54,466 nucleotides of DNA from the NCBI GenBank assembly GCA_964621385.1, contig CAZUMF010000001.1:1-54466 (forward strand), read 5' to 3'. The position numbers and the translations under genes are program-made. Of the stretch, positions 11,379 through 47,892 are shown one piece after another (the stretch's first letter is position 1; each line of letters opens with the position of its first letter). The stretch comes from an uncultured Desulfohalobiaceae bacterium (GTDB lineage Bacteria; Desulfobacterota; Desulfovibrionia; Desulfovibrionales; Desulfothermaceae). The notes beneath the pieces were generated by a model. That model did no database searches. It saw only the letters and a program-made list of their open reading frames with translations, and had not been told where the DNA came from.

Positions 11379-12044
11379 CTATGAGGTTGTATTCCGTTCA
11401 TTGTTCGTGCGCCCCAGCTGAAGCCCTACCAGGATTGTGCCCACACCTTTTTCATTGACCCCTTTGAAATACTTTGTTTTCAAGAAATTGTCCGTCAGAG
11501 TGGACGGGTTGGCAAAAATAACGGCATTGAAGTTTATTAGATGGTTTTTTCCTTCCAGCCTGCACCACTCTGCGGGCAGACAGGGGGTATCAAAATAACA
11601 GGTTTTATCCATCAATTCCTTGGGAAAAGACATTCTGTCCTTATAAATGACAAAACACTCATGCATGAACCAGACGTTTTCTTGGCTTGACAACTTCGAT
11701 CGATCCTCTTCATCCCGCACCTCCTCCCCCACAACTTCATCACCTTTTTTCAATACGAGGCTCGGTAAACGGCCCCAGTCAAAATCCATATTTGTCAAGC
11801 CAACAACGATGTGTGTACACTGGAGGACTTCTCGTAAACCGCTGTTGAAGACTTTGCCCAATCCCATGAGACTTCTCTTTTCCGATTCAGTTTCAATCTC
11901 AAGTATTTTTTGGTGGTCTTCATCCAGGAGGAAAGCAGCCCCGATAATCCCCTTGCTGTTCTGCAAGGCACGAAGTAAGATATCGCTCAAAGAATCATTA
12001 TCCATCATTCCTCCAGGCAAGGTCTTCAGAGATAAAGACCTCAC
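11379..12044 (-). CDS. hypothetical protein coupled to ramA
   Basis: 221-aa ORF whose GTG start overlaps the ramA stop (GTGA). I recognise no domain. Ends in TAG. Confidence 0.4.
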   Translation of the reverse strand: MRSLSLKTLPGGMMDNDSLSDILLRALQNSKGIIGAAFLLDEDHQKILEIETESEKRSLMGLGKVFNSGLREVLQCTHIVVGLTNMDFDWGRLPSLVLKKGDEVVGEEVRDEEDRSKLSSQENVWFMHECFVIYKDRMSFPKELMDKTCYFDTPCLPAEWCRLEGKNHLINFNAVIFANPSTLTDNFLKTKYFKGVNEKGVGTILVGLQLGRTNNERNTTS

Positions 12045-13720
12045 GCCGTGATCAAACTATTCCAGCTAAAGACTTTTTCTTCACAGATCGCCTCGCATCT
12101 CTTACAGGCAATCCCATTGCACAAACCCAACTCTATGGAAATCTCGAAAAGATTCTCTCTTTCCTCCAGTTGAAGCGCCTTTTCCGGACATTCCTCAACA
12201 CAGAGGGCACATCCGATGCATCCAGAAAAAAGAATCTGTTTCTCCTGGCCAATGTCCTCAATGATTCGTAACCCATGAATTCCGGTATCGGCTATGTCTC
12301 TTTTCACCTTTTTGAAAATTTCAACACGGTTGTCTGTTTCTTTCAATCGCGGCAGGCCGAACTTTTTCAGGAAATGCTGGTACTGTCCGTAGGTCATCCC
12401 TTCAGTCCAAAAAGATAATTCCAGGATATACACTTTCTCAAAGACCTTGGATTCGGCGAACATACAATGATGTTGCCTCAGTTGATCCGAAACCCGCTGC
12501 ATGCGGAGGAGTTCATCCTCGTTTTGCAGCAAATCCCTGGCCATGGCCAGGGAGGTGTTCCCCACCTGATAGATCTTTGTTGCTCCGGCCGGAATCAGTC
12601 CCACGTCTTTGGCCTTCAGAGCATCCACATACGTTCCTGAAGCGCCTGACATATAGACTGTCCCGATCTTCTCCAAACCGATGCCCGCTTCATGACACAA
12701 GGCCATATGACCGGCGCGCACCGCCCCAAAAGCCTTTCCGGCTTCAATCACATCTTTGGAGTGAAACCTGACGCTGTTTGGCAAATAAATGTATCCATCC
12801 CTGGTGGCAATTTTTGGAAGCTGAATGAAACCATACTCCATGCCCTGGCTCATGAGGGCGATGACCCCGGTCCCTGTGATACCAACTGCCCGTTCTCCTT
12901 TGTGAAAGAGCTCACCAGTATTCGGGTCAACCGTATCGCCAGGATAGGAAAGCATGTCCTTGCCGAGAACATAGGTTTTCAGCCAACCAGAGACGGATTG
13001 ATCATCCTGATTTTTCCCTGCCGGCCGAGTCTTGGACTCCTTGGCTTCAAAGTCGACATCCGAAATGGCTCCAGGGAGCGCCAGCAGTCCGTCCCCTATC
13101 TGTTGCCCTTCCAAGGCCGGCCCGGCCGCCGTAGACCCTGAGTAGACCCTGCCGTTTGCGATCAAAGCCATTTCAGCATTGGTCCCATAATCAGTGGCAA
13201 TCGCGATTTCATCTTTTTCCAGCATGCCGGTTTGGATCATCATGGCCAAAGCGTCGGCCCCGACCTCATGCCTCACAGCAGGAGGAATCAAGACATCGGC
13301 CTTCGCCGGCAGGTCAAGTCCGCGTATCTGTGAGGTTTTGAACAATCCTCCATCCCTGTTGGGGGGGGTGACTCCCAAGGCCTGGAGTTTGCGTTTCCCG
13401 GCATAGGCCAGATCTCGTATCTCAATTTCCTGAAACAGGGACAGCTGAATGGGGTTTCCGCATACCGCCAGTTTGACAATCGACTCTTTGGCGACACCCA
13501 TGTTTTCAATTAGCTTATTAACGGCCTCCACAACAATCTCGTGGGTCCATTGCAGCCCAACTTCAACAGCGCAATGGAGATGATCCATGACATTGGCCCC
13601 CGGCAAAGGATGACGGGGGGTAACGACGGTCGAAAGGATCAATCCATCCTGCTCGAGATCGACTGCCTGCCCCCTGAATCCACTGGTTCCCAGATCCAAA
13701 GCAATACCAATCTTTGGCAT
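12041..13720 (-). CDS. ramA: methylamine methyltransferase corrinoid protein reductive activase, RamA type
   Basis: 559-aa ORF. The N-terminus IALDLGTSGFRGQ...LAVCGNPIQLSLFQEIEIRDLAYAG...TDYGTNAEMAL closely matches my recollection of Methanosarcina RamA. The C-terminus has two ferredoxin-type Cys clusters (CIGCALCVEECP, CNGIACKRCEAICE). Confidence 0.85.
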   Translation of the reverse strand: MPKIGIALDLGTSGFRGQAVDLEQDGLILSTVVTPRHPLPGANVMDHLHCAVEVGLQWTHEIVVEAVNKLIENMGVAKESIVKLAVCGNPIQLSLFQEIEIRDLAYAGKRKLQALGVTPPNRDGGLFKTSQIRGLDLPAKADVLIPPAVRHEVGADALAMMIQTGMLEKDEIAIATDYGTNAEMALIANGRVYSGSTAAGPALEGQQIGDGLLALPGAISDVDFEAKESKTRPAGKNQDDQSVSGWLKTYVLGKDMLSYPGDTVDPNTGELFHKGERAVGITGTGVIALMSQGMEYGFIQLPKIATRDGYIYLPNSVRFHSKDVIEAGKAFGAVRAGHMALCHEAGIGLEKIGTVYMSGASGTYVDALKAKDVGLIPAGATKIYQVGNTSLAMARDLLQNEDELLRMQRVSDQLRQHHCMFAESKVFEKVYILELSFWTEGMTYGQYQHFLKKFGLPRLKETDNRVEIFKKVKRDIADTGIHGLRIIEDIGQEKQILFSGCIGCALCVEECPEKALQLEERENLFEISIELGLCNGIACKRCEAICEEKVFSWNSLITA

Positions 13721-13900
13721 GTCTGACTCCGAATACTCAGACTCGATATAGCAAGGGTGATCAAATGCCCTTTATCAGCTTTCGAGATAAGTTATAAACT
13801 CAGATTCTATTTGTATTGTTTGATAAAAAAAAGTTTATGGAATGGAACAATTACTTGTAATGATGGAAAATTTGACTAGTATATGAAAAATGGACTTCAA

Positions 13901-14236
13901 CTATTTCCGATTATGCTGTAAAAGTGAACCATAATGCCGCTTGAAACTGGTGGAAGAATATTTACTCATTTTCCAGTCCGGGACTTTGCACTTTTCACAA
14001 GGTTTCGTAAACCACTTATTTCTGAGCCACCGAGCACCACGGCTGTTTTTTGAATTGTTGACCATGAATTGCATGTTGCAATGAGTGGTGATCCAGGCCT
14101 GTTCTCCTTTCTTTTCGATAGTTCTGATTCCATGAAGGACACCTTTCCGAGAAGGCCAGAGCTTGATTTTGTCAATAAGGCTGAAGAGCTCGACCCTCTT
14201 TCTGTAATACCTCTTGGCTGGTTCACATTTAACCAT
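13901..14236 (-). CDS. pylSn: PylSn, stand-alone N-terminal (tRNA-Pyl-binding) domain of pyrrolysyl-tRNA synthetase
   Basis: LWPSRKGVLHGIRTIEKKGEQAWITTHCNMQFMVNNSKNSRGARWLRNKWFTKPCEKCKVPDW aligns with the N-terminal domain of archaeal PylS (LWMSRTGTIHKIKHH...[28 protein letters not shown]). The ATG at 14236 overlaps the pylD stop (ATGGTTAA). The track ORF start at 14413 is an out-of-context extension. Ends in TAG. Confidence 0.8.
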   Translation of the reverse strand: MVKCEPAKRYYRKRVELFSLIDKIKLWPSRKGVLHGIRTIEKKGEQAWITTHCNMQFMVNNSKNSRGARWLRNKWFTKPCEKCKVPDWKMSKYSSTSFKRHYGSLLQHNRK

Positions 14237-14881
14237 TGGCAATTCTGACCAACATGGTTGCGGTTCCGATCTGCAATGGATCGTGTAAAATCCTCGATCC
14301 TGCTTCAGTGATCCCCTTTTGATCCAGACCAAGGGGCATGCCCGGAGCAGCAATGAACATCTCCCGGGAAATAACTTTGCCAGGGATGACTCCCGCCGCA
14401 TTCGTGGCTTCAAAGACCAATCGGCTCTGCTCCAAAGCTTTTTCCAAATGCTGAGTTATTGGAACCTCCTTTGAACTGATACTGCTCAGTTGTTCAGAAG
14501 CAGTTCGACTCTTGGTCCGGTCCAGATCGTACAGGGAGACATCGGCAAAATTGGGCAATCACTTTTTTTCCTGATTGCTTCCCCCAGTCCGCCAACATCT
14601 GTCTCATGGGCTACAAAAGCCGGACAACCTAAATATGCAGCGATCGAACAGACGGCTTCTGAAAAACCTGGAAGCGAACCCTGACCACTGGTTATTGGTA
14701 TAACAGCTGTGTGTAGGGTGGTCGAAAAGAATGGTGCATGCCACCTGCAAGTACGCGATTTTTCTTTACCCGGCTCTGGATTATCAGACTGATTCCTGAG
14801 CTATTTTTCAAATTGACTAATCAATCTTTTTAATAATTCCAGAATAATACAAAGAAGGTTTTTAACACTTCTTCCTTTCAT
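14229..14881 (-). pseudogene. pylD: pylD (3-methylornithyl-N6-L-lysine dehydrogenase), apparently disrupted
   Basis: The C-terminal frame (14229..14558) reads FEATNAAGVIPGK...PLQIGTATML, like the PylD C-terminus. A different frame upstream (14561..14881) reads AVIPITSGQGSLPGFSEAV...DVGGLGEAIRKK, like the PylD N-terminal domain. The two frames need a 1-nt correction near 14545..14563. An in-frame TAG lies at 14801..14803 with no start codon after it. No GxGxxG loop is visible, and the total is ~217 codons. Confidence 0.65.
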
Positions 14882-15034
14882 AATTCTTCATAATTATTGT
14901 TTAACGGTTTCGCTCTGCTTTGTCAACACGTGGCTGAGTATCTAAAGGGACTAGCTTCAATCTGAGCATTTTGTCTCATAGGACCGAACCCTTTTTGGAG
15001 TGTTCCTTCATACTTAAGAGTTAGCGAAAGTATT

Positions 15035-16048
15035 TCAGTGTTTCTGAGCCACTTGCAACATGGCCAGAAGATTTTCCATAGGTGTTCCAGGGGAGACGGC
15101 GCATCCGGGTGCAAGGATCTGGATACCTTTGGAGATGGATTCCTCGGCCTCTTTAGTGACGACATCCGGTTCTTTGAGGAACAAGGTGTTGGTGACATCC
15201 ACCCCTCCCATCAAAACCATGTCCGGGCCACATTTTTCTCTGGCGAATTGGACATCAGCCTTTGGTTCAAGGCTCAAGGCGCTTGTTCCTGTCTGGCCCA
15301 TCTGCTCAACGATAACATCAACCTTCCCACAGATATGAAGAATAGTTGGAACAGAAATGGCTGCAAACTGCTTGCTTTCATATTCCAGCACAAGATCCCC
15401 AAAGGTTTTGGGAGCCATTAGGTCTGGAGAAGCGGTCATATCTTCGCAACTGATGATATCCGCACCGGCTTCAATCAGGGCTTTGGCCAGAGCTGTGCCC
15501 GCCTTTTCTGCCACATCGAGAAAGGGCCGCAGCTTCTCCGGCTTCTTATAGGAGGTTTTCAGCAGGGGAACGGTGTCTATGAGATGGCCGGCAATCGAGA
15601 AAGGACCGACGATTCCTGCTACAATCGGAACTTCGTCGCCGAGTTCCTTCTTCAGGATTTGAACCGCCTTCAGGAGTTCGGGAATTCGCCCTCTGGACAA
15701 AAAATCATCCGGAAAGCTCGGAGTGTCCTCCAATTTATAAGGTGGCGGATGATCGATGCCCGGTATCCCCTCTCCCTGTCTGGTCTTCCCCGGTTTGACC
15801 TTACATCCGAGCGCTTCAGCCTCAAATGTTTGACAAAAAGGGAGTCTCACCGCGTCAAATCCAAGCACGGTATGGTTGGCCAGGGCCAGTTTGGCCATGG
15901 GTTCGGCTTTTTCATGCCCTTCAGGCCAGAAGGCTTGCACCTTCTCCATCTGATCATAGGTGACCAAACTATTGGCTGCGAAGCAGGGCATACGGTCCGG
16001 TTTCTCATGCTGCATGACTGCCATTACCCGTTGTTTTGCATTCATCAT
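15035..16048 (-). CDS. URO-D family methyltransferase, MtaA/MtbA-like (MT2-type), copy 2
   Basis: 337-aa ORF that is URO-D/MtbA-like throughout (RLPFCQTFEAEALGC, ILHICGK). Confidence 0.8.
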   Translation of the reverse strand: MMNAKQRVMAVMQHEKPDRMPCFAANSLVTYDQMEKVQAFWPEGHEKAEPMAKLALANHTVLGFDAVRLPFCQTFEAEALGCKVKPGKTRQGEGIPGIDHPPPYKLEDTPSFPDDFLSRGRIPELLKAVQILKKELGDEVPIVAGIVGPFSIAGHLIDTVPLLKTSYKKPEKLRPFLDVAEKAGTALAKALIEAGADIISCEDMTASPDLMAPKTFGDLVLEYESKQFAAISVPTILHICGKVDVIVEQMGQTGTSALSLEPKADVQFAREKCGPDMVLMGGVDVTNTLFLKEPDVVTKEAEESISKGIQILAPGCAVSPGTPMENLLAMLQVAQKH

Positions 16049-16099
16049 TGCCTCCTCTGTTGAAATACGTTCATATGTTCAACCCACCACGAAAAGACC

Positions 16100-17071
16100 T
16101 CAGGCATTGTCTCGGCTTTGTAAGACACACCGTTTCAGATTTCGGGTTGTCGCCTCGCTGTCAATTCCACAGCCAATGAAAACCAGACGCGTTTCATCCC
16201 TTCCTAACCAGTTTTCCCATTCTGTCTTGTTCCCGACATGATTCACAAAAACAGTTCGGTTTTCAAAGCGCACCGTTCCTTTCACTCGAAACAGCTCCCA
16301 GGGCAGATTGCGCATGAAATCATGGAAACACGTCTCATTGAGGATCTCCGGACCTTGGAAGGAAAAAGTCACAAAGAGCCGATCAGCCCTATCGAGATCT
16401 GTTTCAATGTCAGCGGTGCTTTTCAAGGCATTGATTGGCCGTGGCAGGTTCCAGGCACTGCCGGCAAACAGCGTCTGAAAGTCTACATTGCTGTATATCG
16501 TGGGAATAACCTCTGCATCAGGGACCAACTCATTGATCTCTTTCAAAAAAAAGAGAATCTGCTTTGGGTCAACAGTGTCGCTCTTGTTGAGGAGGATGAG
16601 GTCAGCCTCTTGGATTTGCTTGCTGAAAAGTGATCCAAAACAATCTCTGACCTCCCAGTTGTCGGCATCGACGATGGTGATGACCTTTTTGACGGCCATA
16701 TGGTCATGCATTGCAGCTTCATTCAAGGTTTCAACCACGGATACAGGGTTTCCCACACCGGAAAGTTCTATCAGGATCCTGGTTGGTCTCGACCTTTTCC
16801 AGAGGGCTTGCAGCGTCAGATTCAAATCGGCTTTCATTGTGCAGCAGACGCATCCGCTCGTGAGTTCAATCACATCTGAGCCACCTTGCTTGAGCATATC
16901 GCTGTCAAGGCCCACTTTTCCGAATTCGTTCACTATCACCGCGGTATTCCGCAGATCAGCGTCCCAAGCCAGTATCCTCTTGAGAAGAGTTGTCTTACCC
17001 GATCCCAGAAATCCGGCAATGACAAAGATCTCAGTTTGTTCTGTCAATAGAGATGGGCTCCCTTCCGTCAT
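16100..17071 (-). CDS. CobW/G3E-family GTPase metallochaperone (COG0523)
   Basis: 323-aa ORF with Walker A GFLGSGKTTLLKRIL, the metal-binding GCVCCTM motif and a CobW C-terminal-like domain. Confidence 0.85.
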   Translation of the reverse strand: MTEGSPSLLTEQTEIFVIAGFLGSGKTTLLKRILAWDADLRNTAVIVNEFGKVGLDSDMLKQGGSDVIELTSGCVCCTMKADLNLTLQALWKRSRPTRILIELSGVGNPVSVVETLNEAAMHDHMAVKKVITIVDADNWEVRDCFGSLFSKQIQEADLILLNKSDTVDPKQILFFLKEINELVPDAEVIPTIYSNVDFQTLFAGSAWNLPRPINALKSTADIETDLDRADRLFVTFSFQGPEILNETCFHDFMRNLPWELFRVKGTVRFENRTVFVNHVGNKTEWENWLGRDETRLVFIGCGIDSEATTRNLKRCVLQSRDNA

Positions 17072-17482
17072 GAATCACCTTCTTTTTCTACTCAAATTGA
17101 CAATATCAAAGAAATACCTTGTGAGCCTATCAGCGAATTGATGATTTTTCCTTCGATAGCGGACCAAATACATGGACTTCCGAAGATTTTTCTTATCCAA
17201 CCCTCCCCTGTGGCGACAACCATAAAAGCAGTAATTCTCATTTTGACTTTCCTATGATTATTGGACAACCAATTCTCCAAAGATATAAAAAGCTTGGGGG
17301 GAGGGTAAAAAAAACAGACCTGTGCATGTGCAAAGGCAGGCCTTGACTGAAATAAAAAGTTATAATAGGGTTTATCTTGAAATCTAGATAAAATATCTTC
17401 AAAAACCGCTTTTTCCGGGAAAAACACATAAAACCCCGAGAGACTCGCTCGAAACCGTAAACTCTAACAAAGGAGAGAATCC

Positions 17483-18592
17483 ATGAGAAAGCAACTGTTT
17501 CCCACGAATCTCAGAATTTTGCCAGTTGTGTTGTGTCTCTGTTTCCTGATTTTGACAACAGGAACCGTTTCAAGTGCTGAAAAACCTTATGCAGGAGAAA
17601 CCCTTGTTGTGGGGATCTGGTCCGGCCCCTATGCCGACCATTTCAAGGAAGCCATCGGCCAGCCCTTTGAGGAAATGACCGGCGCCAAGCTGCAGTACAA
17701 GTACTCCTGGGACTTCACCCCTGAAATCATCGCCGCTCCCGAGGACCAGCCCCCCCTCGACGTGGCCGAAACCGCCGATGCCGACTATCTTGTCGGCGTC
17801 AAGCGAAAGCTCTGGCTGCCCCTGCGCTACGAGAACATCCCGAATATCGACAACGTCTATCCTTACGTCAAAGACGAGATGTCCCCCACCATCGAATTCG
17901 GGGTCCCCTTCGACGTCGGGGTCCACGTCCTGTTGTACAGGAAAGACCTCGTCAAGCAGGCCCCGCAGTCCTGGGAGGATCTCTTCAGGGACGAATTCAA
18001 GGGCAAGATCGGGATCGAACGCTGGTTCCCCTACTGGGTCTACGTGGGCAGCTATCTCACGGACTATTCCCCCCCGGAACAGGCCATCTACAGCCAGGAA
18101 GGCCGGGACGCCATCCTGGAGCAGATGGGCAGGCTGAGCAAGCGCTGGTTCTTCTGTTACGAAAAAGGGGCTGAATTCGTCTCCGCCCTGGATGCCGGGG
18201 AAATCCTGGTGGGCAACTACTGGAACGGCTCCGGCACCACCCTGGTCCTGGAAAACCAGGATCGCTACGGCATCGTCTTCCCCGAGGAAGGCGGGGTGGC
18301 CTACCTGGATCATTTCTGCGTGGTCCGGGGCACGGAGAAACGCGACCTGGCCGAGGCCTTCATCAACTACACCGTGAGCAAGAAGGCCCAGATCGATTTC
18401 CTGAAACGCCACTACAACATCATGGTCTACAAGGATCTGGAAGGACATATTCCCGAAGTCATGAAGAAAAACGACCTGCAGCCAACCACCGTGGAAGAGT
18501 GGAAAAAGATCACCAAGATCGACGCCGAATTCCTCGAGCCCATGCGCAAGGAACTGGAAGACCACTTCCTCAAAGAAGTTCTTTCCAGGTAA
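17483..18592 (+). CDS. ABC transporter periplasmic substrate-binding protein (PotD/PotF-like family 1)
   Basis: 369-aa ORF with a Sec-type signal peptide (LPVVLCLCFLILTTGTVSSA). It precedes an ATPase and two permeases of the Pot type. SD aaaggagag lies upstream. Confidence 0.8.
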   Translation: MRKQLFPTNLRILPVVLCLCFLILTTGTVSSAEKPYAGETLVVGIWSGPYADHFKEAIGQPFEEMTGAKLQYKYSWDFTPEIIAAPEDQPPLDVAETADADYLVGVKRKLWLPLRYENIPNIDNVYPYVKDEMSPTIEFGVPFDVGVHVLLYRKDLVKQAPQSWEDLFRDEFKGKIGIERWFPYWVYVGSYLTDYSPPEQAIYSQEGRDAILEQMGRLSKRWFFCYEKGAEFVSALDAGEILVGNYWNGSGTTLVLENQDRYGIVFPEEGGVAYLDHFCVVRGTEKRDLAEAFINYTVSKKAQIDFLKRHYNIMVYKDLEGHIPEVMKKNDLQPTTVEEWKKITKIDAEFLEPMRKELEDHFLKEVLSR

Positions 18593-18703
18593 GCCAGCTG
18601 CGAAAAATGTCCGGGCCCCCTCCTCGAGGGGGCCTTCCGGCCGGGACCCTGCCCTGCCGGCCCGTGTTCACCGAGTCGACGTCCAGCAAAAAAGGGTTGC
18701 CCT

Positions 18704-19771
18704 ATGAACACCGCTGTCAGTCTTCAGAACCTCACGAAAAAATTCAACGAAGTCACGGCCCTACACGACATCTCCCTGGACATTTACGCCCGGGACTTCT
18801 TTTTCCTGCTCGGCCCCAGCGGCTGCGGCAAAACCACCTTGTTGAAAATTATCGGCGGCCTGGAATTTCCCACCACGGGCACCATTAAGATCCTGGATAA
18901 AGATGTGACCCGGGTCCGGGCCAACAAGCGGAACACCTCCATGGTCTTTCAGGAATGGGCCCTGTTTCCGCACATGAGTGTCTACGAGAACATCGCCTTC
19001 GGCCTGAAGAAACGGAAAATCGACAAAAAGACCATCACCCGCAAGGTGGACGAACTCCTGGAGCTTTTGCATATGTCCGGGTACCAGAACCGGATGCCGT
19101 TCGAACTCAGCGGCGGCCAGCAGCAACGGGTGGCCATCGCCCGCTCCCTGGCCATCGAACCGGACGTCCTCCTCCTGGACGAGCCCCTGTCCAACCTGGA
19201 CCTGGCCCTGCGCCAGCAGATGCGGGTGGAACTGGTCAGACTGCACAAGGAGATCGACAAGACCTTTGTCTACGTCACCCACGACCAGACCGAAGCCCTG
19301 AGCATGGCCAACAGGATCGCGGTGATGAACATGGGGGTCGTGGTCCAACTGGATTCCCCGGAGACCATCTACAAGCGACCCAAGAACGAGTACGTCGCCA
19401 AATTTATCGGGGAAGCCAACGAGGTCAAAGGGACCATCGTCTCACCGACGATGTTTGTCTCCGATTCCGGACTCCAGGTCAAAATCCCCCAGCAGGACCT
19501 CCCCACGGACAGCCGGGTGCTTTTCGTGGTCCGGCCCGAGGAGATCCACCTTTTGGACCCGGAGGCCGAGCTCCCGGAGAATCATTTCCGGGCCCGGGTG
19601 GACACGGTGAGTTATTTCGGCCGGCAGCTGCGTTTTTATGTCAAACTCATCGAGAGCGGGGAGATCTTTTTCATCGATATCTTCTCGACCCAGCTGAATG
19701 CCGATTTCTACCCGAACCAGGAGATCCTGATCGGCTGGGAACGGAGCCAAACCTTTTGCTTTCAAGGCTAA
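18704..19771 (+). CDS. ABC transporter ATP-binding protein (PotA-like)
   Basis: 355-aa ORF with Walker A GPSGCGKTT, signature LSGGQQQRVAIAR, Walker B LLLDEP and a C-terminal TOBE-like region. Confidence 0.9.
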   Translation: MNTAVSLQNLTKKFNEVTALHDISLDIYARDFFFLLGPSGCGKTTLLKIIGGLEFPTTGTIKILDKDVTRVRANKRNTSMVFQEWALFPHMSVYENIAFGLKKRKIDKKTITRKVDELLELLHMSGYQNRMPFELSGGQQQRVAIARSLAIEPDVLLLDEPLSNLDLALRQQMRVELVRLHKEIDKTFVYVTHDQTEALSMANRIAVMNMGVVVQLDSPETIYKRPKNEYVAKFIGEANEVKGTIVSPTMFVSDSGLQVKIPQQDLPTDSRVLFVVRPEEIHLLDPEAELPENHFRARVDTVSYFGRQLRFYVKLIESGEIFFIDIFSTQLNADFYPNQEILIGWERSQTFCFQG

Positions 19772-19789
19772 GCCCGGAGGTATGCCCCG

Positions 19790-37961: not shown

Positions 37962-38018
37962 GCCCTATCCCTTCACACCATAGCAGGACGAATTCTACAC
38001 ATTGCAAGACCAATGCCA

Positions 38019-38729: not shown

Positions 38730-38730
38730 G

Positions 38731-39483: not shown

Positions 39484-39546
39484 CCCTCGCTCCTCAATGT
39501 AGGCAATATCTCATCAACAATGTCCCGCGTTTCGAATACCTGGGAC

Positions 39547-40530: not shown

Positions 40531-41417
40531 TATTCCGTCTTCCTGGCTCCTAAAATTCCTGTTGGTTTGGCCACTAAAACCAGCAGCATAATCACAAGGC
40601 CCAAGATTGTGGCCAAACTGCCGGAGAAATAGGTACTTATAAACGTGTAGAAAAAGGCGTACAGCACTGCGGCCATAACCGCTCCTGTCAGACTGCCCAG
40701 CCCGCCCACCAAAGTCACGATCAAGGCGGTGATAATGACAGCGTGGCCCATATAGGGCTCCACCCGGGTCAGGGGTGCCATCATGGCCCCGGCTGCTCCG
40801 GCTGAAAAGGCACTGATGATCATGGCCAGGATGGAAATCTGGTTGATATTGATTCCTTGAAGCTCTGCTGCCTCTCGATCCTGGGCTACGGCCCTGAGGG
40901 CCCAGCCCAGTTTGGTCTTGGTCAGTAAAAAACCGATCAGAAAAAGCAAGACAGCTGACACCACAAGGGCCAGGAGGCGTTGGGCCGATACGGTCACTCC
41001 GCTCACGATCTCTATCGTCCCCCGAACCGATGGGGGGATATGCTTCATAAGACCAAGCCCCCCGATTTCCACGGCCAGAACCTGGAGTATAAACAAGGCC
41101 CCGATGGAATTGATCAGACCTCCAAGCGGATTGTCACGCATGGGGCGGAACAGTCCCAGTTCCATGATCAAGCCGATAAGAGTGACGATGAGGCAGGCCG
41201 CTATTCCAGCCAGGAAAAACGGCCAGCCGGATACGGAATACAGGTACCAAACCCCGTAAGCCCCAGCCATGTATAATTCTCCATGGGCCAGGTTGATGAC
41301 GCCCATAACCCCGAAGATGAGCACCAAGCCCACGGCTACCAGGGCAAAAAAACTACTGGCAACTAAGCTGTTGACGCAGGTCTGCAAAAAGACTTCCACG
41401 GTCCAGATCCTCCTCAA
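40530..41417 (-). CDS. livH: ABC transporter permease (LivH-like)
   Basis: 295-aa polytopic membrane ORF with VINLAHGELYMAGAY typical of LivH. The exact start is uncertain. Confidence 0.85.
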   Translation of the reverse strand: MRRIWTVEVFLQTCVNSLVASSFFALVAVGLVLIFGVMGVINLAHGELYMAGAYGVWYLYSVSGWPFFLAGIAACLIVTLIGLIMELGLFRPMRDNPLGGLINSIGALFILQVLAVEIGGLGLMKHIPPSVRGTIEIVSGVTVSAQRLLALVVSAVLLFLIGFLLTKTKLGWALRAVAQDREAAELQGININQISILAMIISAFSAGAAGAMMAPLTRVEPYMGHAVIITALIVTLVGGLGSLTGAVMAAVLYAFFYTFISTYFSGSLATILGLVIMLLVLVAKPTGILGARKTE

Positions 41418-41462
41418 AAAGAGACCAGGAGTTCCTCCTCCCGGTCTCTTGTCTTGTCAAGG

Positions 41463-42740
41463 CTATTTCTGATAGTACATGAGGTTCATTTTTTCCTGAT
41501 GCTTGATGTAGACATCCTTGTGCTTGGCCCACCAATCCGGGATGCTTCTGTATTCCATGATCTTGGCCTTCCCGTCGTTGATGACCACAACCGGCCAGTT
41601 GCCCACCAGGGCATTGTCGATCCCCCAGAGTTCCTTACCCCACCATTTTGCCTTTCCAAAGGCGTGAGGGGCTTTACCACCGGCTTTCATGGCCTTGAAG
41701 ACATCCATGGATTCGATGCTGCCTGCCTGTTGTGCACCCGCCATCCAGAGGTCCATGATAGATGCGTACTCCCAGGCCACAGCCGACCATGTTCCTGGGT
41801 GCCGCTTGACGAACTCGGCATAAAACTTATTGGGATTTCTGAAGTTGATCTGAGGTTCATTGAGGGCCGGGTCATCGAAGTCCGGAAACTGAAAGATCGT
41901 GCCTTCCATGAATTCCTTGCTCGTTTTTTCAATGATCTCGGGATAATTGTCATAGGTGCAGGAAATGATCTTACCCTTGAAACCCTTATGATAGGCCTGA
42001 ACCGAAATCAAATTGACGAAATCGGCATAGGCGGTGTCTAAGCAGAGAATATCAGGGTCTTTGGCCAGTAGTGAGGTCACCACCGGGGCAAAGTCCGTCG
42101 TGGAGATATCGAAAATGTTCTCCTTGATGACTTCCATCCCGGACACTTCGAAGGCGGCCCGATAGGTGGCGATTGAAGGGTTGCCCAGGGCATCGTCCTG
42201 GGCACACATGGCCACGGTCTTCAAGTTTGGAAAATTCTCCGACAACCACTCTACTCCGGTGACGTTGTAAATCGGGTGCACCTCGCAAGGAGCCACATGG
42301 TAGGGAGCATCCGGATTCAAATCACTGGGCAGCAAGGTGGTGGTCAGCATCCGACTCTTTGTGGCGAAACGCTGCACTGCCGGCCAGGTGCTTCCCCCCA
42401 GCATCATGATCATCTTGACATCGTTTTCCATGACCAGCTTCTTGGCACCACGAAGCGCCTTATCCGGCTGGTATTCATTGTCATAGGAGACAAATTCGAC
42501 TAAGTAATTGGTGTCACCCACCTTGATGCCGCCTTTAGCGTTGATCCATTCCGCCCAGATCTCACAGCCGTACAATCCGGGCAGACCCCAGGCCGCCACC
42601 TCACCGGTCAGCGGAGCCAGAAAACCGATCTTGACTGTTTCTGTTTTTCCACTGCCAAAAGAGACACCCGGCAGCCCAATCCCGGCTAGGGCCGCCCCAG
42701 CGGCACTCGCCTGCAAAAATTGTCTTCGTGTAATACCCAT
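41463..42740 (-). CDS. Liv/AmiC-type periplasmic substrate-binding protein with a twin-arginine signal
   Basis: 425-aa ORF. The N-terminus MGITRRQFLQASAAGAALAGIG is a Tat-type motif. Type-I periplasmic binding fold pattern (VKIGFLAPLTGEVAAWG). Ends in TAG, followed by 1 codon and then TGA. Confidence 0.85.
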   Translation of the reverse strand: MGITRRQFLQASAAGAALAGIGLPGVSFGSGKTETVKIGFLAPLTGEVAAWGLPGLYGCEIWAEWINAKGGIKVGDTNYLVEFVSYDNEYQPDKALRGAKKLVMENDVKMIMMLGGSTWPAVQRFATKSRMLTTTLLPSDLNPDAPYHVAPCEVHPIYNVTGVEWLSENFPNLKTVAMCAQDDALGNPSIATYRAAFEVSGMEVIKENIFDISTTDFAPVVTSLLAKDPDILCLDTAYADFVNLISVQAYHKGFKGKIISCTYDNYPEIIEKTSKEFMEGTIFQFPDFDDPALNEPQINFRNPNKFYAEFVKRHPGTWSAVAWEYASIMDLWMAGAQQAGSIESMDVFKAMKAGGKAPHAFGKAKWWGKELWGIDNALVGNWPVVVINDGKAKIMEYRSIPDWWAKHKDVYIKHQEKMNLMYYQK

Positions 42741-42971: not shown

Positions 42972-44450
42972 TCAAGCCGCTGCCTCCCGTTCTTTGGCCT
43001 CGGCCTCCTCGACAATCGACCTCAATTTCGACAGGACTTCAGCCGGCAGTTCAGTGACCTTGTGTTTTTCCAGAATCTCTCGGGCCCTCTCACCGGCCAC
43101 CTCGGCCAGATCCTTGCCTCCGCGTTTCTGCCACGCACCCCGCATCCTGCGGTCAATCAACTTCACTTTTGACTGCTCCGTTCCCATATACTGTCTGGTG
43201 TGTTTCTGGGCCAGAAAGTCCTTACCCGAGCCTACCTTCTTGATCAGTTCAACCGCCAAGGTGTCATCTGACACATTGACTCCTTGAACCACTCGCTTGA
43301 CCATGGCGGCAATCTCATTATCCATGACGAGCTGGGCAAAACTGAAGGTCACCCCCAGTTCCAGCATGCCCATCCCATAGATCAGATTCGCCCCGGCCAA
43401 GGCAGGCAACAGGGAAGTGATGGTTTTTTCGTGTCCGGCCTGAGCATCGGACACTTTGCTGTCTGCCTAATTCCCCGCCACATAACTTGGCAACCGGTAG
43501 TAACGGGCCAGTCCCGCCACACCCGCACTGAGCATGCCCAGCTCCGGAGCGCCGACTGGAGCCGTGGCATAGGTCAGGTCAAAGGTTGTTGTGGAACTGC
43601 CGTAAATCAGCGGGGCCCCTTTGGCCGTCAGCTGACTCAAGACGACACCAGCCAAGACCTCAGCATTGTGCGTGACCAGAGTACCGGCCACAGAAACCGG
43701 TGAGGAACCCCCTGACATGGCCATGGACAATACATTGCAAGGCATCCCGGCCCGGGCGCATTCGATGATGATCTCCGCATTGGCAGCGTGGAGCTCCAAG
43801 GGACTTGTCGGACAGATAAGGGCCGAAACGAGCGGTCTTTCCCTGAGCTTATCAGGGCCTCCCACAATCTCGGCCGCCATTTCAAAGAACTTTTTCGCCC
43901 CTTCACCGCCCGAGAGATCGATGTGCTGGCAATGCTTGCAGGTGTTGGTCAAGAAAGCCTCGGCCTCATTGAGGTCCGTGGCCAAATCCTTATCCCTGGC
44001 CACGACAGCACTGGAATACACATCAACATGTTCCAGGGCATCACAGGCCAGGGCTGTCCAGCCCACGTCCTTTTTGTTGGATTCTCGAAGTTCACCGTTA
44101 TACGGGTCCACCATCATTACTCCGGCCCCGAAGCTGGTAAAGCCCACCCGGCCCCCTTGCAGGGTCACGTCGTATTCAGGGGTTCTGCCTGCCATCAAAA
44201 TAGTGCTGGGGGCTGAAGAAATGGCATCCTCCACCAGGTAAGACGGAATCTTCACATGTTTGTTCTCCCAGTCAACAATCGCTCCACCACCATCGAATAT
44301 TTTCAGGGCTTCTTCACTATAAACCCCGACCCCGTAATTCTGAAGAACATCCAGGGTCGCCAGATGGATTTCGTTGAGCTGGTCGTCCGTGAACATGCTC
44401 AGACCCCAACCTTCCTGAGTGCTTATGCCAGGTTGAAGTCCTCGAATCAT
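42972..44450 (-). CDS. mttB: trimethylamine:corrinoid methyltransferase MttB (copy 2) with an in-frame UAG (pyrrolysine) at 43467..43469
   Basis: Track ORFs 43467..44528 and 42972..43454 share a frame and are separated only by TAG. The start is taken at MIRGLQ (44450), preceded by aaaggaggtg-N5. The joined product is 492 aa. Terminates in TGA. Confidence 0.9.
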
Positions 44451-44585
44451 TTTCACACCTCCTTTTCTTTTGAGATTGACTGTTTTGTCTTGTAATGTTT
44501 GTTCCTGATCTGTCATCACCTCCTTCATGAGTCAGGTTGTGCCAGCATACAGCCAAGCAAGAGACTCAGGAATCGAATGTTCCTT

Positions 44586-45230
44586 TTACTTGATGAGTTC
44601 TTTGGCCTTGGGCACCGCATCATTTGCATCTTCTGCATAGCAGTCCGCGCCGATCTTGTCGGCCCAGTCCTGAGTTGCTGCCGCACCGCCGATCATGGTT
44701 TTGACTTTGTCTCGTATCCCGGCCTTTTTCAGTTCTTCCTCAACCTGTTTCTGACCAATCATGGTCGTGGTCATCAGAGCCGAGGAGCCGACAATGTCGG
44801 CGTTTAACTCCTTGGCCTTCTCCACAAAGACATTGATCGGCACATCCCTGCCGAGATCCGTCACTTCGAAACCATAGACCCGAAGGATGGTGCACAGAAT
44901 CCGCTTGCCGATATCGTGTATGTCTCCTTCGACCGTTCCGATCACGGCTCTGGCAAGGGGTTCGACAACCTCGTCCTTGGGTATGTGGGGCTCTAAGATC
45001 TCGATGGCCTTGGTCATGGCCTCTGCTGCCACCAGAACCCCGGGAAGTGGAATTTCTTCGTTGGCAAAACCTTCCCCGACTTCCGTCATCCCTGCAGAAA
45101 AGCCTTCATTGATGATTTCAAGTGGGCTTATGCCTTCTGCAAGGACCTGGTTGGCCACTGCTGCAGCCATGTCTTCGTCACCATCCAACAAAGCCTGTTT
45201 GCTTTTTTTCAACAAATCTTCTTTGCTCAC
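44586..45230 (-). CDS. mttC: corrinoid protein (MttC-like by position)
   Basis: 214-aa ORF with a cap domain and a B12-binding domain carrying GDIHDIGKRI. It lies directly upstream of mttB copy 2. The symbol is assigned from adjacency only. Confidence 0.85.
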   Translation of the reverse strand: MSKEDLLKKSKQALLDGDEDMAAAVANQVLAEGISPLEIINEGFSAGMTEVGEGFANEEIPLPGVLVAAEAMTKAIEILEPHIPKDEVVEPLARAVIGTVEGDIHDIGKRILCTILRVYGFEVTDLGRDVPINVFVEKAKELNADIVGSSALMTTTMIGQKQVEEELKKAGIRDKVKTMIGGAAATQDWADKIGADCYAEDANDAVPKAKELIK

Positions 45231-45342: not shown

Positions 45343-45783
45343 TCAAAAAACTGTTTTTTCCGGTTCTACGAAACATTTCCGGATGACGTCCGGAACTTCC
45401 CATAATAACGAGGGCCAGGTATGCCGGGTTGGCTGCATGAGATGAAGAGCCTGCGTTAGAGGTTCAATCCGATCAAGAACTCGTTTAGCAAAGAAATATC
45501 CTTTTTTTCCAAAAATGACCGTCTCTGTGCTCTGCCCTGTGAGAGAGGGATCAAGAATTTTCAAGGCATTATTCATGGCTGTAACGGCCATCAGGACCGT
45601 TGGAAGAGCCGTTTTTTCCTGGGCAAACAAGTCAATGATCTCCAACATACCCGGGACAAGCCCGCGGTCGATGAACTGTACTGGATCAAGTCCATGTTCG
45701 ATGGTCATTCTGGCTGCGACAACCGCCTTATCGGTATCTCCTTCATAAACAGCCGCTGCTGCCTTCTCCACAAGTCTTTCCAT
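45343..45783 (-). CDS. corrinoid-protein cap (B12-binding_2) domain only; truncated or degenerate corrinoid protein
   Basis: 146-aa ORF. The first ~90 aa resemble the helical cap of the neighbouring corrinoid proteins (GLDPVQFIDRGLVPGMLEIIDLF...LPTVLMAVTAM). No DxHxxG or Rossmann part follows in any frame. Confidence 0.5.
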   Translation of the reverse strand: MERLVEKAAAAVYEGDTDKAVVAARMTIEHGLDPVQFIDRGLVPGMLEIIDLFAQEKTALPTVLMAVTAMNNALKILDPSLTGQSTETVIFGKKGYFFAKRVLDRIEPLTQALHLMQPTRHTWPSLLWEVPDVIRKCFVEPEKTVF

Positions 45784-45842: not shown

Positions 45843-47240
45843 TTAGAGTTTGAATTCAAAGCCGATGCCTTCCATGGTCTTAATAGCCTGATCCAAAACA
45901 TCGAAGTGTTCTTTCGTGGGCATCAATGACTTCACGTCATAACACTCCTGAAAGGTCTTGCCCTTGGGGGCCTCTCTGAACTTGGTCTCGTAGAGGCTGA
46001 CCAGTTTGTCCAGCATGGAGTTTACTTTATCTGTTTCAACCCCGGCCACTGCTCTGGCGGCATAAGCCATAAAACGGGCTTCAATGGCTGTCGTCTTGTC
46101 GCGGGCAACACCCTTGGCTGAGGCACAGCCGCTCATTATTTCCATGCCGCTGGCCGTATCCGTGATGGCCTGGGCTGCTGCCTCCAAAAGGCACATCTCA
46201 GTGCAGGGTCCGGCAGAAGTGTAGTACTGATTTCCTAAAAGCAGATGTGTATGCTTATCAACGGCCCGGCAGGCATGTCCGGCGACCATCAACGGCTCCC
46301 TGGCCGTTGTATTGCCCCAGCGCACATGAATAGGACCGTCCAGATGCCAGTCGGCGCCGACCATGATGAATGCGGCGAGGTGGGTGGCCACGTTCACGAT
46401 TGAGGTCTCCTCGACCCCACCGGCCCAGCCACCGATAATCGGCATCTGTTCGCTCATGATGATGTTGCCTGCCAGTTTGTAATGGGCCGTAAAAGCGAGC
46501 GCGTTGATGTCAATCTTGAGTTCATTCAACTGGCTCACCTCGTGGCTGTCACACGGTCTCATGCCCTCTGGGAAATCGGCGGCGATCACTCCTGCGGCAG
46601 TCAGAGAAGTTTCGCTCCCCTACATGGCCATGCCGGGCCGACCGGCCCGGGTCATTGCAGCCCGAATCTGGGAGACCTCGCCTTTGACAGCGGCTATTTC
46701 CCATGGAGATCCGGGTTTGGGCTCTCTCCCGTTGATGGTGGCCAAGACCCCGTTAACGATGGTATCCACCAGGGGCTCCCGGGCAAAAGCTTCATGCATG
46801 GCGATGAAGCAGTCCTCGGAAACAGGCGCTCCGGTGGGTCCACCTTGGCACAGGGGTGGTATTGGGCTGTCGAACCTTCTGGGCGCCAACCGCCGTGCAT
46901 CACGACCCTCACCAAGGGTCAATTCTTTGGGGGCGCCGGCAACGGCCAGCAGGACCTCCTCTTCGGTGTACTTGATGATCCTGCCTGTATCCATGCAGTA
47001 GACACCCATCTCTACAAGCATCTCCAGACCGGCCTGAAACAGGCGATCAAGCATGTCCTCATCAGTGGGGATGATCTTGGTCCGGTCGAATTGCAGTTTG
47101 TACTTCTTTTTCAACTTGTTGGCGGTTTGGAACGTCACCTTTTGATCCCATTCCTTTTCGTCCATCCGTGGTCCGGTGCGTGCTCGATCATAGGTCTCGA
47201 ACACGCCCACTTTGTCTCTGAAGCGAGTAAAGCCCATCAT
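45843..47240 (-). CDS. mtmB: monomethylamine:corrinoid methyltransferase MtmB with an in-frame UAG (pyrrolysine) at 46620..46622
   Basis: Track ORFs 46620..47240 and 45843..46589 share a frame and are separated only by TAG. RAGRPGMAM-O-GSETSLTAAG and DSHEVSQLNELKID, HLDGPIHVRWG, GPCTEMCLLEAAAQAITDTASG and GKTFQECYDVK match my recollection of Methanosarcina MtmB. The joined product is 465 aa. Terminates in TAA. Confidence 0.9.
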
Positions 47241-47250
47241 TCACCTCCTT

Positions 47251-47892
47251 TTATTTACTGATCAATTCCGTAATGAGTTCCACTCCGGCGGCGGCGTTTT
47301 CTCCCCAGCCATCCCCGCCGATCATGTCCACCCAGTCCTGAGTTGTCGGGGCCCCGCCAAAGACGCACTTGAATCTGTCCCGCAGACCGCGTTCCTTCAG
47401 GGCATCGATGATGTCCCTCTGTCCCGGCATGGTCGTCGTCATCAGGGCCGATCCTGTGATACAATCCACATCGTTGTCCACGGCCGCATCGATCACTTGA
47501 TCCGCAGGCACATCCCGCCCCAGATCGATGGCATCGTATCCATTGGCCTGCAGGAGAATGGTGAAAATACCCTTGCCGATATCGTGGATATCACCCTCCA
47601 CCGTATGGACCACGACCTTGCCTTTGGCTGAATATCCACCCTTGATTTGCGCCGCCAGGACATCCACCGCCGCTGTGAAGGCTTCGGCCGACAGGACAAT
47701 CTGCGGCACATAGATCTCGGCCCGGTCGAATCGGTCGCTGATTTCCTTCATGGCCGCGGAAAGTCCGTTTTCTATGCACTCAAGGGGATCAAGTCCTTGG
47801 GCCAGTGCCTCGTTCGCCGCCGCAACGGCTGCATCTGTGTCCATATCCAAGACACAACTCTTCAAACGCTCGAACATTTCTTGTGAACTCAT
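47251..47892 (-). CDS. mtmC: corrinoid protein (MtmC-like by position)
   Basis: 213-aa ORF with a cap domain and a B12-binding domain carrying GDIHDIGKGI. It lies 10 nt upstream of mtmB. The symbol is assigned from adjacency only. Confidence 0.85.
   Translation of the reverse strand: MSSQEMFERLKSCVLDMDTDAAVAAANEALAQGLDPLECIENGLSAAMKEISDRFDRAEIYVPQIVLSAEAFTAAVDVLAAQIKGGYSAKGKVVVHTVEGDIHDIGKGIFTILLQANGYDAIDLGRDVPADQVIDAAVDNDVDCITGSALMTTTMPGQRDIIDALKERGLRDRFKCVFGGAPTTQDWVDMIGGDGWGENAAAGVELITELISK

Follow-up and report, generated by a model that had tools for sequence, protein, structure and literature searches.

A pyrrolysine-type methylamine methyltransferase island on a contig attributed to the Desulfobacterota, mostly shared with related bacteria and bearing an incomplete set of pyl genes

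What is a set of pyrrolysine (Pyl)-type methyltransferase genes for monomethylamine (MMA), dimethylamine (DMA), and trimethylamine (TMA) doing among genes of bacterial appearance, where did it come from, and can its in-frame UAG codons still be read? These questions are raised by contig CAZUMF010000001.1 of assembly GCA_964621385.1, which we analyzed from end to end, so that the window referred to throughout is the entire 54,466-bp NCBI contig; its reads are also present in the Logan assembly of run SRR12088347. Our preferred reading, to which we assign a probability of about 0.75, is that the island is a methylotrophy gene cluster of a Desulfobacterota bacterium, probably a member of the Desulfobacterales of the sulfate-reducer type, that is mostly shared within its lineage and carries a recent addition of ~10 kb. 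Continued decoding of UAG as pyrrolysine is the least secure part of this reading.

A stop-to-stop scan for open reading frames (ORFs) across the window, with TAG counted as a sense codon, recovered five long ORFs with exactly one in-frame TAG apiece, and these constitute a Pyl-type set of one mtmB, two mtbB, and two mttB genes (Table 1). The relevant NCBIfam equivalog models have cutoffs of 525 bits for the TMA methyltransferase (TIGR02369) and 369 bits for the DMA methyltransferase (TIGR02368). The gene content proposed by the initial annotation is thereby borne out: the TAG-as-sense scan, hidden Markov models (HMMs), and alignment of the Pyl sites agree on the five genes with one TAG each; the span given for the island, 12041-47892, runs exactly from ramA to mtmC; three cognate corrinoid genes score over the TIGR02370 cutoff; the stand-alone pylSn matches TIGR03912 over its full length; the NarL-type two-component system and the Liv and Pot ATP-binding cassette (ABC) transporters are found by Pfam; and the bacterial, non-methanogen style of the contig agrees with its Desulfobacterota relatives, its split pylS, and its synteny.

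The TAG codons coincide with the known sites of pyrrolysine. That of mtmB occupies the alignment column of residue 202 of Methanosarcina barkeri MtmB1 (1tv2/1l2q), that of mttB-2 the column of Pyl334 (X) of M. barkeri MttB (PDB 7xcl), and the X of mttB-1, which is Pyl328 when counted from an ATG at 23445 preceded by a strong AGGAGG Shine-Dalgarno motif, falls in the same column as the X of mttB-2. In place of a structure comparison, the site of MtbB was judged by PYLIS_2 and by the TAG being kept in five orthologs. The Rfam models PYLIS_2 and PYLIS_3, which start at the UAG, score 77-86 bits, and their matches fall precisely on the TAGs of the two mtbB and two mttB genes (PYLIS_2 with 86 bits at mtbB-1 and 85.5 bits at mtbB-2; PYLIS_3 at mttB-1). 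Five TAGs exactly at the catalytic position cannot be chance, and each of the five enzymes depends on its UAG being read through there. Among the other TAG-containing ORFs, none had homology support as a further Pyl protein, and the TAG that closes the AAA gene was rejected as a Pyl codon, being a normal stop that is followed by an out-of-frame VWA gene.

Relatives were collected by a scan for RamA, the activase encoded at one end of the island, using one genome per GTDB species, and the 48 loci obtained (designated, like further loci and contigs below, by L numbers) all belong to bacterial metagenome-assembled genomes (MAGs), with RamA identities of 52-69% and a best value of 69%. The mtbB-2 product is 81-85% identical to orthologs from Desulfobacterales MAGs, all of which keep the TAG, as do all three of the loci in which mttB-2 finds orthologs at 80-83% (L005, L008, and L033) and both of those compared for mtmB (86% to L008 and 74% to L029). 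Identities to M. barkeri are 56% for MtmB and 50% for MttB (mttB-2). The more divergent mtbB-1 has its best loci in two Desulfobacula MAGs (L031 and L019, 67-69%), and for mttB-1 we found >100 database clusters that are 327-aa N-terminal fragments at 72-93% identity, those bearing names coming from Desulfobacterales or Deltaproteobacteria MAGs. The C-terminal fragment of MtmB matched 857 database proteins at E<=1e-30, including dozens of 90%-identity metagenome clusters at 77-96% and Sporomusa proteins at 66%.

We then asked what the sequence downstream of each TAG says about read-through. The TAG was kept at the partner codon with no further stop in 10/10 ortholog comparisons, the frame stays open for 112-258 codons past the TAG in the five genes, and the ratio of nonsynonymous to synonymous substitution rates (dN/dS) after the TAG is 0.03-0.16 where dS was measurable (0.03 for mtmB and 0.05-0.16 for mtbB-2), while in the cases with saturated dS the dN after the TAG is as low as that before it. 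The kept TAG and the low downstream dN/dS together indicate that the C-terminal parts have been translated throughout the divergence of these lineages; the estimates are pairwise, and a very recent loss is still compatible with them. Nucleotide conservation adds to this for mtbB: when six bacterial orthologs are compared, synonymous third positions are invariant at 12/32 eligible codons within the 50 codons that follow the UAG (30233-30382, + strand, in mtbB-2), against 18/218 upstream of the UAG (Fisher p=4.6e-5), with pairwise dS of 0.8-1.5 after the UAG and near or at saturation before it. The conserved stretch coincides with the Rfam PYLIS_2 match of mtbB-2 and fits the known PYLIS-type nucleotide conservation.

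The decoding machinery on the contig gives a less favorable picture. Two genes appear intact, pylB and pylSn; the ATG of the latter overlaps the stop of a pylD remnant, its own stop is TAG, and its product is 78% identical to the PylSn of L008. With the PylD of L029 as a tblastn query, the remnant resolves into residues 57-129 at 14707-14489 and residues 206-267 at 14435-14244. Several observations weigh against a working system. The two pylD fragments lie in different reading frames, so that the gene is frameshifted, and it is missing ~56 N-terminal residues and the central Rossmann GxGxxG, NAD-binding segment; a Logan contig (L051) is identical to the window over the remnant down to 14428. 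No near-identical intact pylD, of a kind that could account for the break of L051 at 14428, was found in the protein database searched with the remnant, which returned 6 matches at <=61% identity (<=52% where >=73% of the query was covered); the one match whose context was inspected, on L056, is on an error-prone 4x contig, and the search is uninformative on a second intact pylD copy. No pylT was found in the window by ARAGORN, Rfam, or blastn-short with three bacterial tRNA-Pyl probes (ARAGORN detects tRNA-Pyl in L029, L031, and L032, which served as a positive control), and neither pylSc nor pylC was found on the contig. TAG is also the ordinary stop of 7/49 ORFs (14%), including pylSn, which means that read-through must be conditional or tolerated. 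The same situation is described for Pyl-decoding bacteria, where decoding is considered conditional. With a broken pylD, and with pylT, pylSc, and pylC missing from the contig, completeness of function is unproven, and the earlier suggestion of a possibly complete pathway, for which the second methyltransferase step has more than one candidate enzyme, cannot be upheld from this contig. For a working system, pylT, pylSc, pylC, and pylD function must lie elsewhere in the genome.

Such a state could reflect decay of the Pyl system, in which UAG would no longer be decoded, the five TAG genes would be recent pseudogenes or give truncated products, and methylotrophy on quaternary amines, methanol, or methoxylated compounds would be carried by the non-Pyl MttB homolog and the URO-D/MtgA module. 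Beyond the pylD pseudogene, the pyl genes not found on the contig, and the share of ordinary TAG stops, that explanation can draw on a truncated corrinoid-like remnant at 45343-45783 and on the presence of both the non-Pyl MttB paralog and a complete MtgA-corrinoid-RACo-URO-D module. We nevertheless consider it unlikely: all five frames are open well past the TAG and under strong purifying selection there, the intact pylB and pylSn match their HMMs over the full length, and pyl genes are scattered in close relatives too (L008, L031, and L032). L008 has pylB and pylSn without pylC or pylD within 21 kb, and L031 carries pylSc-pylC elsewhere in its cluster; given this scattering, absence from one 54-kb contig is weak evidence of loss. 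The pylD-pylSn overlap that is kept here looks like the 3' end of the canonical bacterial operon, with the order pylTScBCDSn (PMC3941956), from which the 5' part would have been lost.

The relatives of RamA and its flank, the B12 riboswitch, the NarL-type two-component system, and the split pylS point to a Desulfobacterota bacterium as the source, with Desulfobacterales as the probable order. The labels of the RamA loci are mostly Desulfobacterales, Desulfobacteraceae, Desulfobacula, Syntrophobacteraceae, Desulfomonilaceae, or "delta proteobacterium," with a few Chloroflexota, and wherever a window gene has homologs among these loci, its best match is one of them. No phylogenetic marker genes are present on the contig, so that taxonomy and respiration are drawn from the relatives only, a further weakness of the preferred reading. 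A different origin had been foreseen as what would overturn the bacterial interpretation, namely an archaeal contig, or a chimera, made in assembly or binning, that combines methanogen methyltransferases with bacterial transporters and regulators. In favor of it, Methanosarcina is where the enzyme families were first defined, the GC content at third codon positions (GC3) jumps at 17483 and declines by ~28 kb, and the right edge of the GC3-rich block has no independent contig cover. What was found makes it extremely unlikely. Logan contigs from the same run, assembled independently, are 100% identical to the window over 14428-17662 (the pylD remnant, MtaA1, CobW, and the start of the GC3-rich block) and 28461-39555 (mtbC, mtbB-2, DUF2284, AAA, VWA, pylB, MtaA2, cbiL, a TPR gene, and the start of a Liv operon) and reproduce three key junctions, including that between pylB and MtaA2 in the 14.4-kb contig L050, so that the junctions of "archaeal-looking" with "bacterial-looking" genes cannot be blamed on a single assembler. 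Identity of the methyltransferases is 80-86% to orthologs in Desulfobacterales MAGs, compared with 50-56% to the M. barkeri enzymes; Liv genes, the kinase/regulator pair, and pylSn flank methyltransferases in other Desulfobacterales MAGs too; named homologs of mttB-1, a gene of the GC3-rich block, are from Desulfobacterales or Deltaproteobacteria; and pylS is split as in bacteria. Shine-Dalgarno motifs precede most of the methyltransferase and corrinoid genes and were not used as bacterial evidence, since they do not separate bacteria from Methanosarcina.

Gene order in the relatives shows how much of the island is lineage property. Within 21 kb, the Desulfobacterales MAG JBFFCW010000001 (L008) carries mtmC-mtmB, mttC-mttB, an mtaA-like gene, ramA, mtbC-mtbB, the DUF2284/AAA/VWA genes, pylB, a regulator/kinase pair, pylSn, and a RACo gene, and large parts of this order are found in L004, L005, L032, and L033. 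In L029 (Dehalococcoidales), L053, and L055, mtmCB has RamA and a complete pyl operon as neighbors. In another ~35 or so Desulfobacterota loci there are an MtaA-like gene (70-75%) and RamA flanking MtaC, CobW, sigma-54 regulators, and MtaB, with a protein of the 221-aa type, a PAS kinase, and a NarL-type regulator coming next; in L012 the order is MtaA-MtaC-CobW-sigma54-MtaB-RamA-221-aa-type ORF-kinase-regulator. These MtaABC-bearing loci are methanol methyltransferase systems. In the window, the conserved 221-aa protein between ramA and the kinase has homologs at 51-59% identity, and L012 has a comparable family-less ORF at the same place; the succession of ramA, 221-aa-type ORF, kinase, and regulator thus recurs in L012, with homologs in L002, L003, L006, and L008, and the protein/kinase/regulator module lies behind ramA in many Desulfobacterota loci. 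The shared backbone suggests that the methylamine island was built on an MtaA/RamA/two-component framework typical of the lineage, in which the two-component system is no chance neighbor.

These comparisons also bear on the idea that the whole cluster was acquired recently and directly from a methanogen, piecemeal and in this one organism. Its mosaic composition, its scrambled pyl genes with a pylD remnant wedged between MtaA1 and ramA, and its divergent paralog pairs (54% identity between mttB-1 and mttB-2, and 56-57% between mtbB-1 and the mtbB-2-type orthologs of L008 and L033) could be taken that way. The arrangement of mtmCB, mttCB, mtaA, ramA, mtbCB, the DUF2284-AAA-VWA trio, pylB, and Liv is, however, common to several Desulfobacterales MAGs at 60-86% identity, and this sharing of order and sequence implies that assembly of the cluster predates this organism. 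Related modules in Dehalococcoidales (L029) and Chloroflexia (L007) MAGs indicate that such genes have moved between bacteria, the contig shows neither an integrase or transposase nor flanking repeats, and we judge such an acquisition very unlikely.

Lateral transfer is better supported for one segment. From 17483 to 26589 on the + strand, GC3 is 0.68-0.82, compared with 0.5-0.66 elsewhere on the contig: it rises from ~0.55 to 0.77-0.82 at 17483, holds at 0.77-0.82 across the Pot genes and flavoprotein (17483-23049), and is lower again by ~28 kb. The left edge is sharp, lies at an AT-rich divergent intergenic region (17072-17482), and is spanned by Logan contig L051, including the first 180 nt of the block. 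The right junction, at 28051-28186, has no independent contig across it, which counts on the negative side, and the search for an integrase, a transposase, or flanking repeats around the block was negative. High GC3 as an intrinsic property of mttB-1-type genes was considered and rejected, as GC3 is 0.50-0.56 in homologs from a complete Desulfobacterales genome; with ordinary values in these homologs, the skew of the block reflects a different donor background. The ~10-kb block with the Pot-like ABC transporter, the flavoprotein, mttB-1, and mtbB-1 looks like a recent lateral addition. "Laterally assembled," as the island had been described, is fair for this block only, the remainder being syntenic with other Desulfobacterales MAGs.

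Three of the methyltransferases have cognate corrinoid proteins, and mtbC, mttC, and mtmC each lie directly upstream of their own methyltransferase gene (mtbB-2, mttB-2, and mtmB, respectively), with scores to be read against a TIGR02370 cutoff of 215 bits; the motif VEGDxHDIGK is seen in the corrinoid protein translations. Both mttB-1 and mtbB-1 are without a corrinoid gene of their own. Syntenic mtbC genes at 74-76% identity occur in L004, L005, L008, and L033, mttC is 75-76% identical to those of L005 and L008, and mtmC is 69% identical to that of L008. The truncated ORF between mtmB and mttC has only the B12-binding_2 cap and no Rossmann DxHxxG domain, aligns with intact corrinoid proteins over only ~100-130 N-terminal residues (tblastn), and is probably a gene remnant. 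RamA is full length, with a C-terminal 2x[4Fe-4S] ferredoxin domain and two Cys-rich motifs seen in the translation. Its described resemblance to the archaeal enzyme stands as far as subfamily membership goes (TIGR04270), and its closest relatives are those of the 48 bacterial MAG loci. Corrinoid-supply genes on the contig are CobW, CobO, and CbiL, the last under a B12 riboswitch; for CobW, the identical gene in Logan carries Pfam cobW and CobW_C annotations. The riboswitch-cbiL pair inside the island links corrinoid supply to the methyltransferase cluster.

Under the preferred reading, TMA would be demethylated stepwise to DMA, MMA, and ammonium, each methyl group being loaded onto the Co(I) of its own corrinoid protein, and RamA would rescue corrinoid oxidised to Co(II) at the expense of ATP and low-potential electrons. 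The methyl group would pass to tetrahydrofolate (THF), via either the MtgA-like MtrH-family enzyme (7386-8339) or one of three URO-D enzymes, and would be oxidised via the methyl branch of the Wood-Ljungdahl pathway with sulfate or another acceptor. We infer that methyl groups end on THF by analogy, as PMC8318568 proposes for marine Deltaproteobacteria. The three URO-D paralogs reach subfamily cutoffs (244 bits for PRK06252). One of them, MtaA1, could carry out the second methyl transfer: it retains the H-x-C...C zinc motif, and in its alignment to M. mazei MtaA (4ay7) both LHICG and PGC are conserved. Orthologs of MtaA1 (70-75% identity) lie at or near ramA in ~40 Desulfobacterota loci, in both methanol-type (MtaBC) and Pyl-type clusters. 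This part of the scheme, too, meets contrary evidence: the URO-D genes fall under the equivalog cutoffs (325 and 291 bits against 400 for MtaA; 240 and 189 bits against 600 for MtbA), the enzymes keep the thiol-activating zinc motif of coenzyme M methylases, no Wood-Ljungdahl or dsr genes are on the contig, and the acceptor could be a thiol or THF, with more than one enzyme as candidate partner of the Pyl systems.

The MtgA-like gene belongs to a second module (2097-8339, - strand) that recurs in L002, L003, L012, L027, L030, L044, and L049. The best PDB matches of its product include the Desulfitobacterium hafniense methylcorrinoid:THF methyltransferase (6sj8), ranked under the MtrH subunit H (8z9u). 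The RACo-type activase of this module has Fer4_20 and Pyr_redox_2 domains (aa ~353-740) inserted between the RACo middle and the C-terminal ASKHA domains, a layout that suggests an activase with built-in NAD(P)H-linked electron input. The fusion has full-length homologs in two loci, with 74% identity in L003 and 69% in L002; elsewhere the RACo match falls into two parts, as if the insertion were lacking.

Of the remaining genes, the non-Pyl MttB-superfamily member has no TAG, scores below the TIGR02369 cutoff, has Leu at the Pyl column, and is 30% identical to mttB-2; in the PDB it matches MttB about as strongly as it does MtgB, the glycine betaine enzyme, and it is probably a methyltransferase of the quaternary-amine type. 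It is tightly spaced behind mttB-1 and mtbB-1 in the same orientation and is not clearly of the MtgB type. Two Liv-type importers are encoded. The first lies downstream of and co-directional with mttCB-2, and is syntenic at 70-74% identity in other Desulfobacterales MAGs, with 70-73% for LivK and LivH in L005 and L008; the second is immediately upstream of and co-directional with mtmCB and is 61-70% identical to genes of L033, a Ca. Desulfobacula maris MAG. From this placement, methylamines rather than branched-chain amino acids are the candidate substrates of both. Between mtbB and pylB stands the trio of DUF2284, AAA, and VWA genes, which has the same order in L004, L005, L008, L032, and L033, and the trio, or the AAA-VWA pair alone, is also near RamA or pyl genes in L017, L039, L007, and L053, the pair adjoining RamA in L053. 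L008 has AAA and VWA joined in a single 615-aa ORF. The trio may act as a cofactor-insertion or maturation chaperone for corrinoid proteins.

Table 1. Predicted features of the 54,466-bp window, with coordinates in the numbering of the contig
Feature	Position	Strand	Evidence
mttB-1 (Pyl-type TMA:corrinoid methyltransferase)	ORF 23394-24917, start ATG 23445	+	TIGR02369 746 bits; TAG 24426-24428
mtbB-1 (divergent Pyl-type DMA:corrinoid methyltransferase)	25195-26589	+	TIGR02368 484 bits; TAG 26239-26241
mtbB-2 (Pyl-type DMA:corrinoid methyltransferase)	29171-30571	+	TIGR02368 647 bits; TAG 30230-30232
mttB-2 (Pyl-type TMA:corrinoid methyltransferase)	42972-44528, probable start ATG 44450	-	TIGR02369 729 bits; TAG 43467-43469
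mtmB (Pyl-type MMA:corrinoid methyltransferase)	45843-47240	-	Pfam MtmB 693 bits; TAG 46620-46622
Non-Pyl MttB-superfamily gene	26615-28051	+	TIGR02369 361 bits (<525)
mtbC (corrinoid protein cognate to mtbB-2)	28512-29156	+	TIGR02370 246 bits; MtbC NF041607 249 bits; DxHxxG present
mttC (corrinoid protein cognate to mttB-2)	44586-45230	-	TIGR02370 255 bits
mtmC (corrinoid protein cognate to mtmB)	47251-47892	-	TIGR02370 235 bits
Truncated corrinoid-like ORF between mtmB and mttC	45343-45783	-	Pfam PF02607 only, aa 4-76
ramA (ATP-dependent reductive activase of methylamine corrinoid proteins)	12041-13720	-	TIGR04270 732 bits (cutoff 500), residues 4-555
pylB (radical-SAM methylornithine synthase), appears intact	33461-34555	+	TIGR03910 457 bits (cutoff 348)
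pylSn (stand-alone N-terminal tRNA-Pyl-binding subunit of PylRS), appears intact	13901-14236	-	TIGR03912 128 bits, model 1-89/89
pylD pseudogene	14244-14707	-	tblastn fragments; TIGR03911 71 bits (cutoff 150), model 170-265 only
MtaA1 (MtaA/MtbA-like URO-D-family methylcobamide methyltransferase)	15035-16048	-	PRK06252 334 bits
MtaA2 (MtaA-like URO-D-family methyltransferase)	34705-35760	-	PRK06252 294 bits; Pfam URO-D
Third URO-D methyltransferase	2097-3143	-	Pfam
RACo-type activase fused to GltD-like flavoprotein module, 1146 aa	3187-6627	-	Pfam
Corrinoid protein of second module	6638-7318	-	Pfam
MtgA-like (MtrH-family) methylcorrinoid:tetrahydrofolate methyltransferase	7386-8339	-	PDB matches
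NarL/LuxR-type response regulator	8549-9277	-	Pfam
PAS-PAS-HisKA_3 sensor kinase	9210-11246	-	Pfam
Conserved 221-aa protein between ramA and kinase	11379-12044	-	No Pfam/NCBIfam match; stop = TAG
CobW-family metallochaperone GTPase	16100-17071	-	TIGR02475 E=1e-39, under equivalog cutoff
PotD-like solute-binding protein	17483-18592	+	Pfam
Pot-type ABC ATPase	18704-19771	+	Pfam
Pot-type permeases, two	19790-20662 and ~20715-21557	+	Pfam
FAD_binding_2 flavoprotein	21604-23049	+	Pfam
DUF2284 metal-binding protein	30894-31454	+	Pfam
MoxR-like AAA+ ATPase	31585-32568	+	Pfam
VWA protein	32622-33425	+	Pfam
cbiL (precorrin-2 C20-methyltransferase)	36035-36943	-	TIGR01467 206 bits
Cobalamin riboswitch, upstream of cbiL	36932-37161	-	Rfam RF00174 98.6 bits
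Liv-type ABC importer 1 (Peripla_BP_6 binding protein, two permeases, two ATPases)	38019-42740	-	Pfam
Liv-type ABC importer 2 with embedded Usp gene	47948-53344	-	Pfam

This kind of system is already known in bacteria. The Olavius algarvensis delta1 symbiont has six Pyl-mtbB and two Pyl-mttB genes, pylT, pylSn, pylSc, and pylBCD, and no mtmB (Zhang & Gladyshev 2007, PMC1976440); Pyl-MtmB occurs in Acetohalobium arabaticum and Desulfotomaculum acetoxidans (Borrel et al. 2014, PMC3941956); "Candidatus Formimonas warabiya" strain DCMF (Peptococcaceae) encodes mttB, mtbB, mtmB, mttC, mtbC, mtmC, mtbA, and the full set of pyl genes (Holland et al. 2019, PMC6778437); and cosmopolitan marine Deltaproteobacteria encode up to five Pyl-TMA methyltransferases, a Pyl-DMA methyltransferase, RamA, and cognate corrinoid proteins (Kivenson et al. 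2021, PMC8318568). In the last study MtbA was absent and a MetH-family enzyme was proposed in its place, mtmB goes unmentioned, and Pyl is at position 327 of 485. The view that a full set with RamA is a hallmark of Methanosarcinales, bacteria having mainly mttB, is therefore outdated in light of these four papers.

Compared with the M. barkeri system (pylTSBCD), the contig has the same three Pyl families with UAG at the positions of Pyl202 and Pyl334, adjacent cognate corrinoid proteins, a RamA of the same full-length architecture, and URO-D MtaA/MtbA-like genes with the zinc motif. It differs in its bacterial host, in having a split pylS (pylSn only), dispersed pyl genes, and a broken pylD, in URO-D genes that stay under the MtbA/MtaA equivalog cutoffs beside an MtgA-like THF methyltransferase, and in embedding ABC importers and a NarL-type two-component system in the cluster. 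With the lineages of PMC8318568 and PMC1976440 it shares a Desulfobacterales-related affiliation, multiple Pyl-MttB, Pyl-MtbB, RamA, cognate corrinoid proteins, and split PylS, and for those lineages it is proposed or implied that methyl groups enter the Wood-Ljungdahl pathway by way of THF; the Pyl position reported in PMC8318568 also agrees with the 327-aa length of the mttB-1 N-terminal segment. In contrast to both, the contig adds a Pyl-MtmB with its own corrinoid protein, reported in neither paper for these lineages, and has an incomplete pyl set; it further differs from PMC8318568 in having URO-D MtaA/MtbA-like genes next to ramA. Strain DCMF, A. arabaticum, and D. acetoxidans are likewise non-methanogenic bacteria with Pyl machinery, but these Firmicutes belong to another phylum (Peptococcaceae or Halanaerobiales) and have the genes genome-wide with a complete pylTScBCDSn cluster, whereas here the methyltransferase set is packed into 36 kb of a Desulfobacterota contig. 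The MtgB-MtgC-MtgA system of D. hafniense (2qne, 6sj8) has counterparts in the non-Pyl MttB gene (26615-28051) and the MtrH-family gene (7386-8339), although the former is no closer to MtgB than to Pyl-MttB and sits within an operon of Pyl enzymes. The additions made by this contig are limited: the enzyme for MMA occurs together with those for TMA and DMA in a Desulfobacterota example, five Pyl genes lie within 36 kb, ramA has MtaA/MtbA-like neighbors, and a second mttB-mtbB pair was apparently acquired recently.

A bolder proposal goes beyond our preferred reading, and we offer it tentatively, as possible and on balance doubtful: a non-methanogen would carry out the full demethylation of TMA via DMA and MMA to ammonium with five Pyl enzymes, would pass the methyl groups on through an MtbA-like zinc-thiolate URO-D enzyme, and would belong to a lineage that is enlarging its repertoire by recent acquisition of mttB-mtbB together with a polyamine-type importer and a flavoprotein. 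If true, such an organism would compete directly with methanogens for substrates usually called "noncompetitive," and bacteria would either have a methyl carrier that is a thiol or use the URO-D fold in a new, THF-directed way. Methylamines have classically been seen as left by sulfate reducers to methanogens, and a whole series of predicted TMA, DMA, and MMA enzymes with RamA in Desulfobacterales would support a bacterial sink for these methane precursors, an idea already published for TMA and DMA. With its functions predicted from sequence, the contig does not change this picture qualitatively and provides a compact example of it that includes MtmB, an MtaA-like/RamA/two-component backbone shared with methanol systems, and candidate amine importers.

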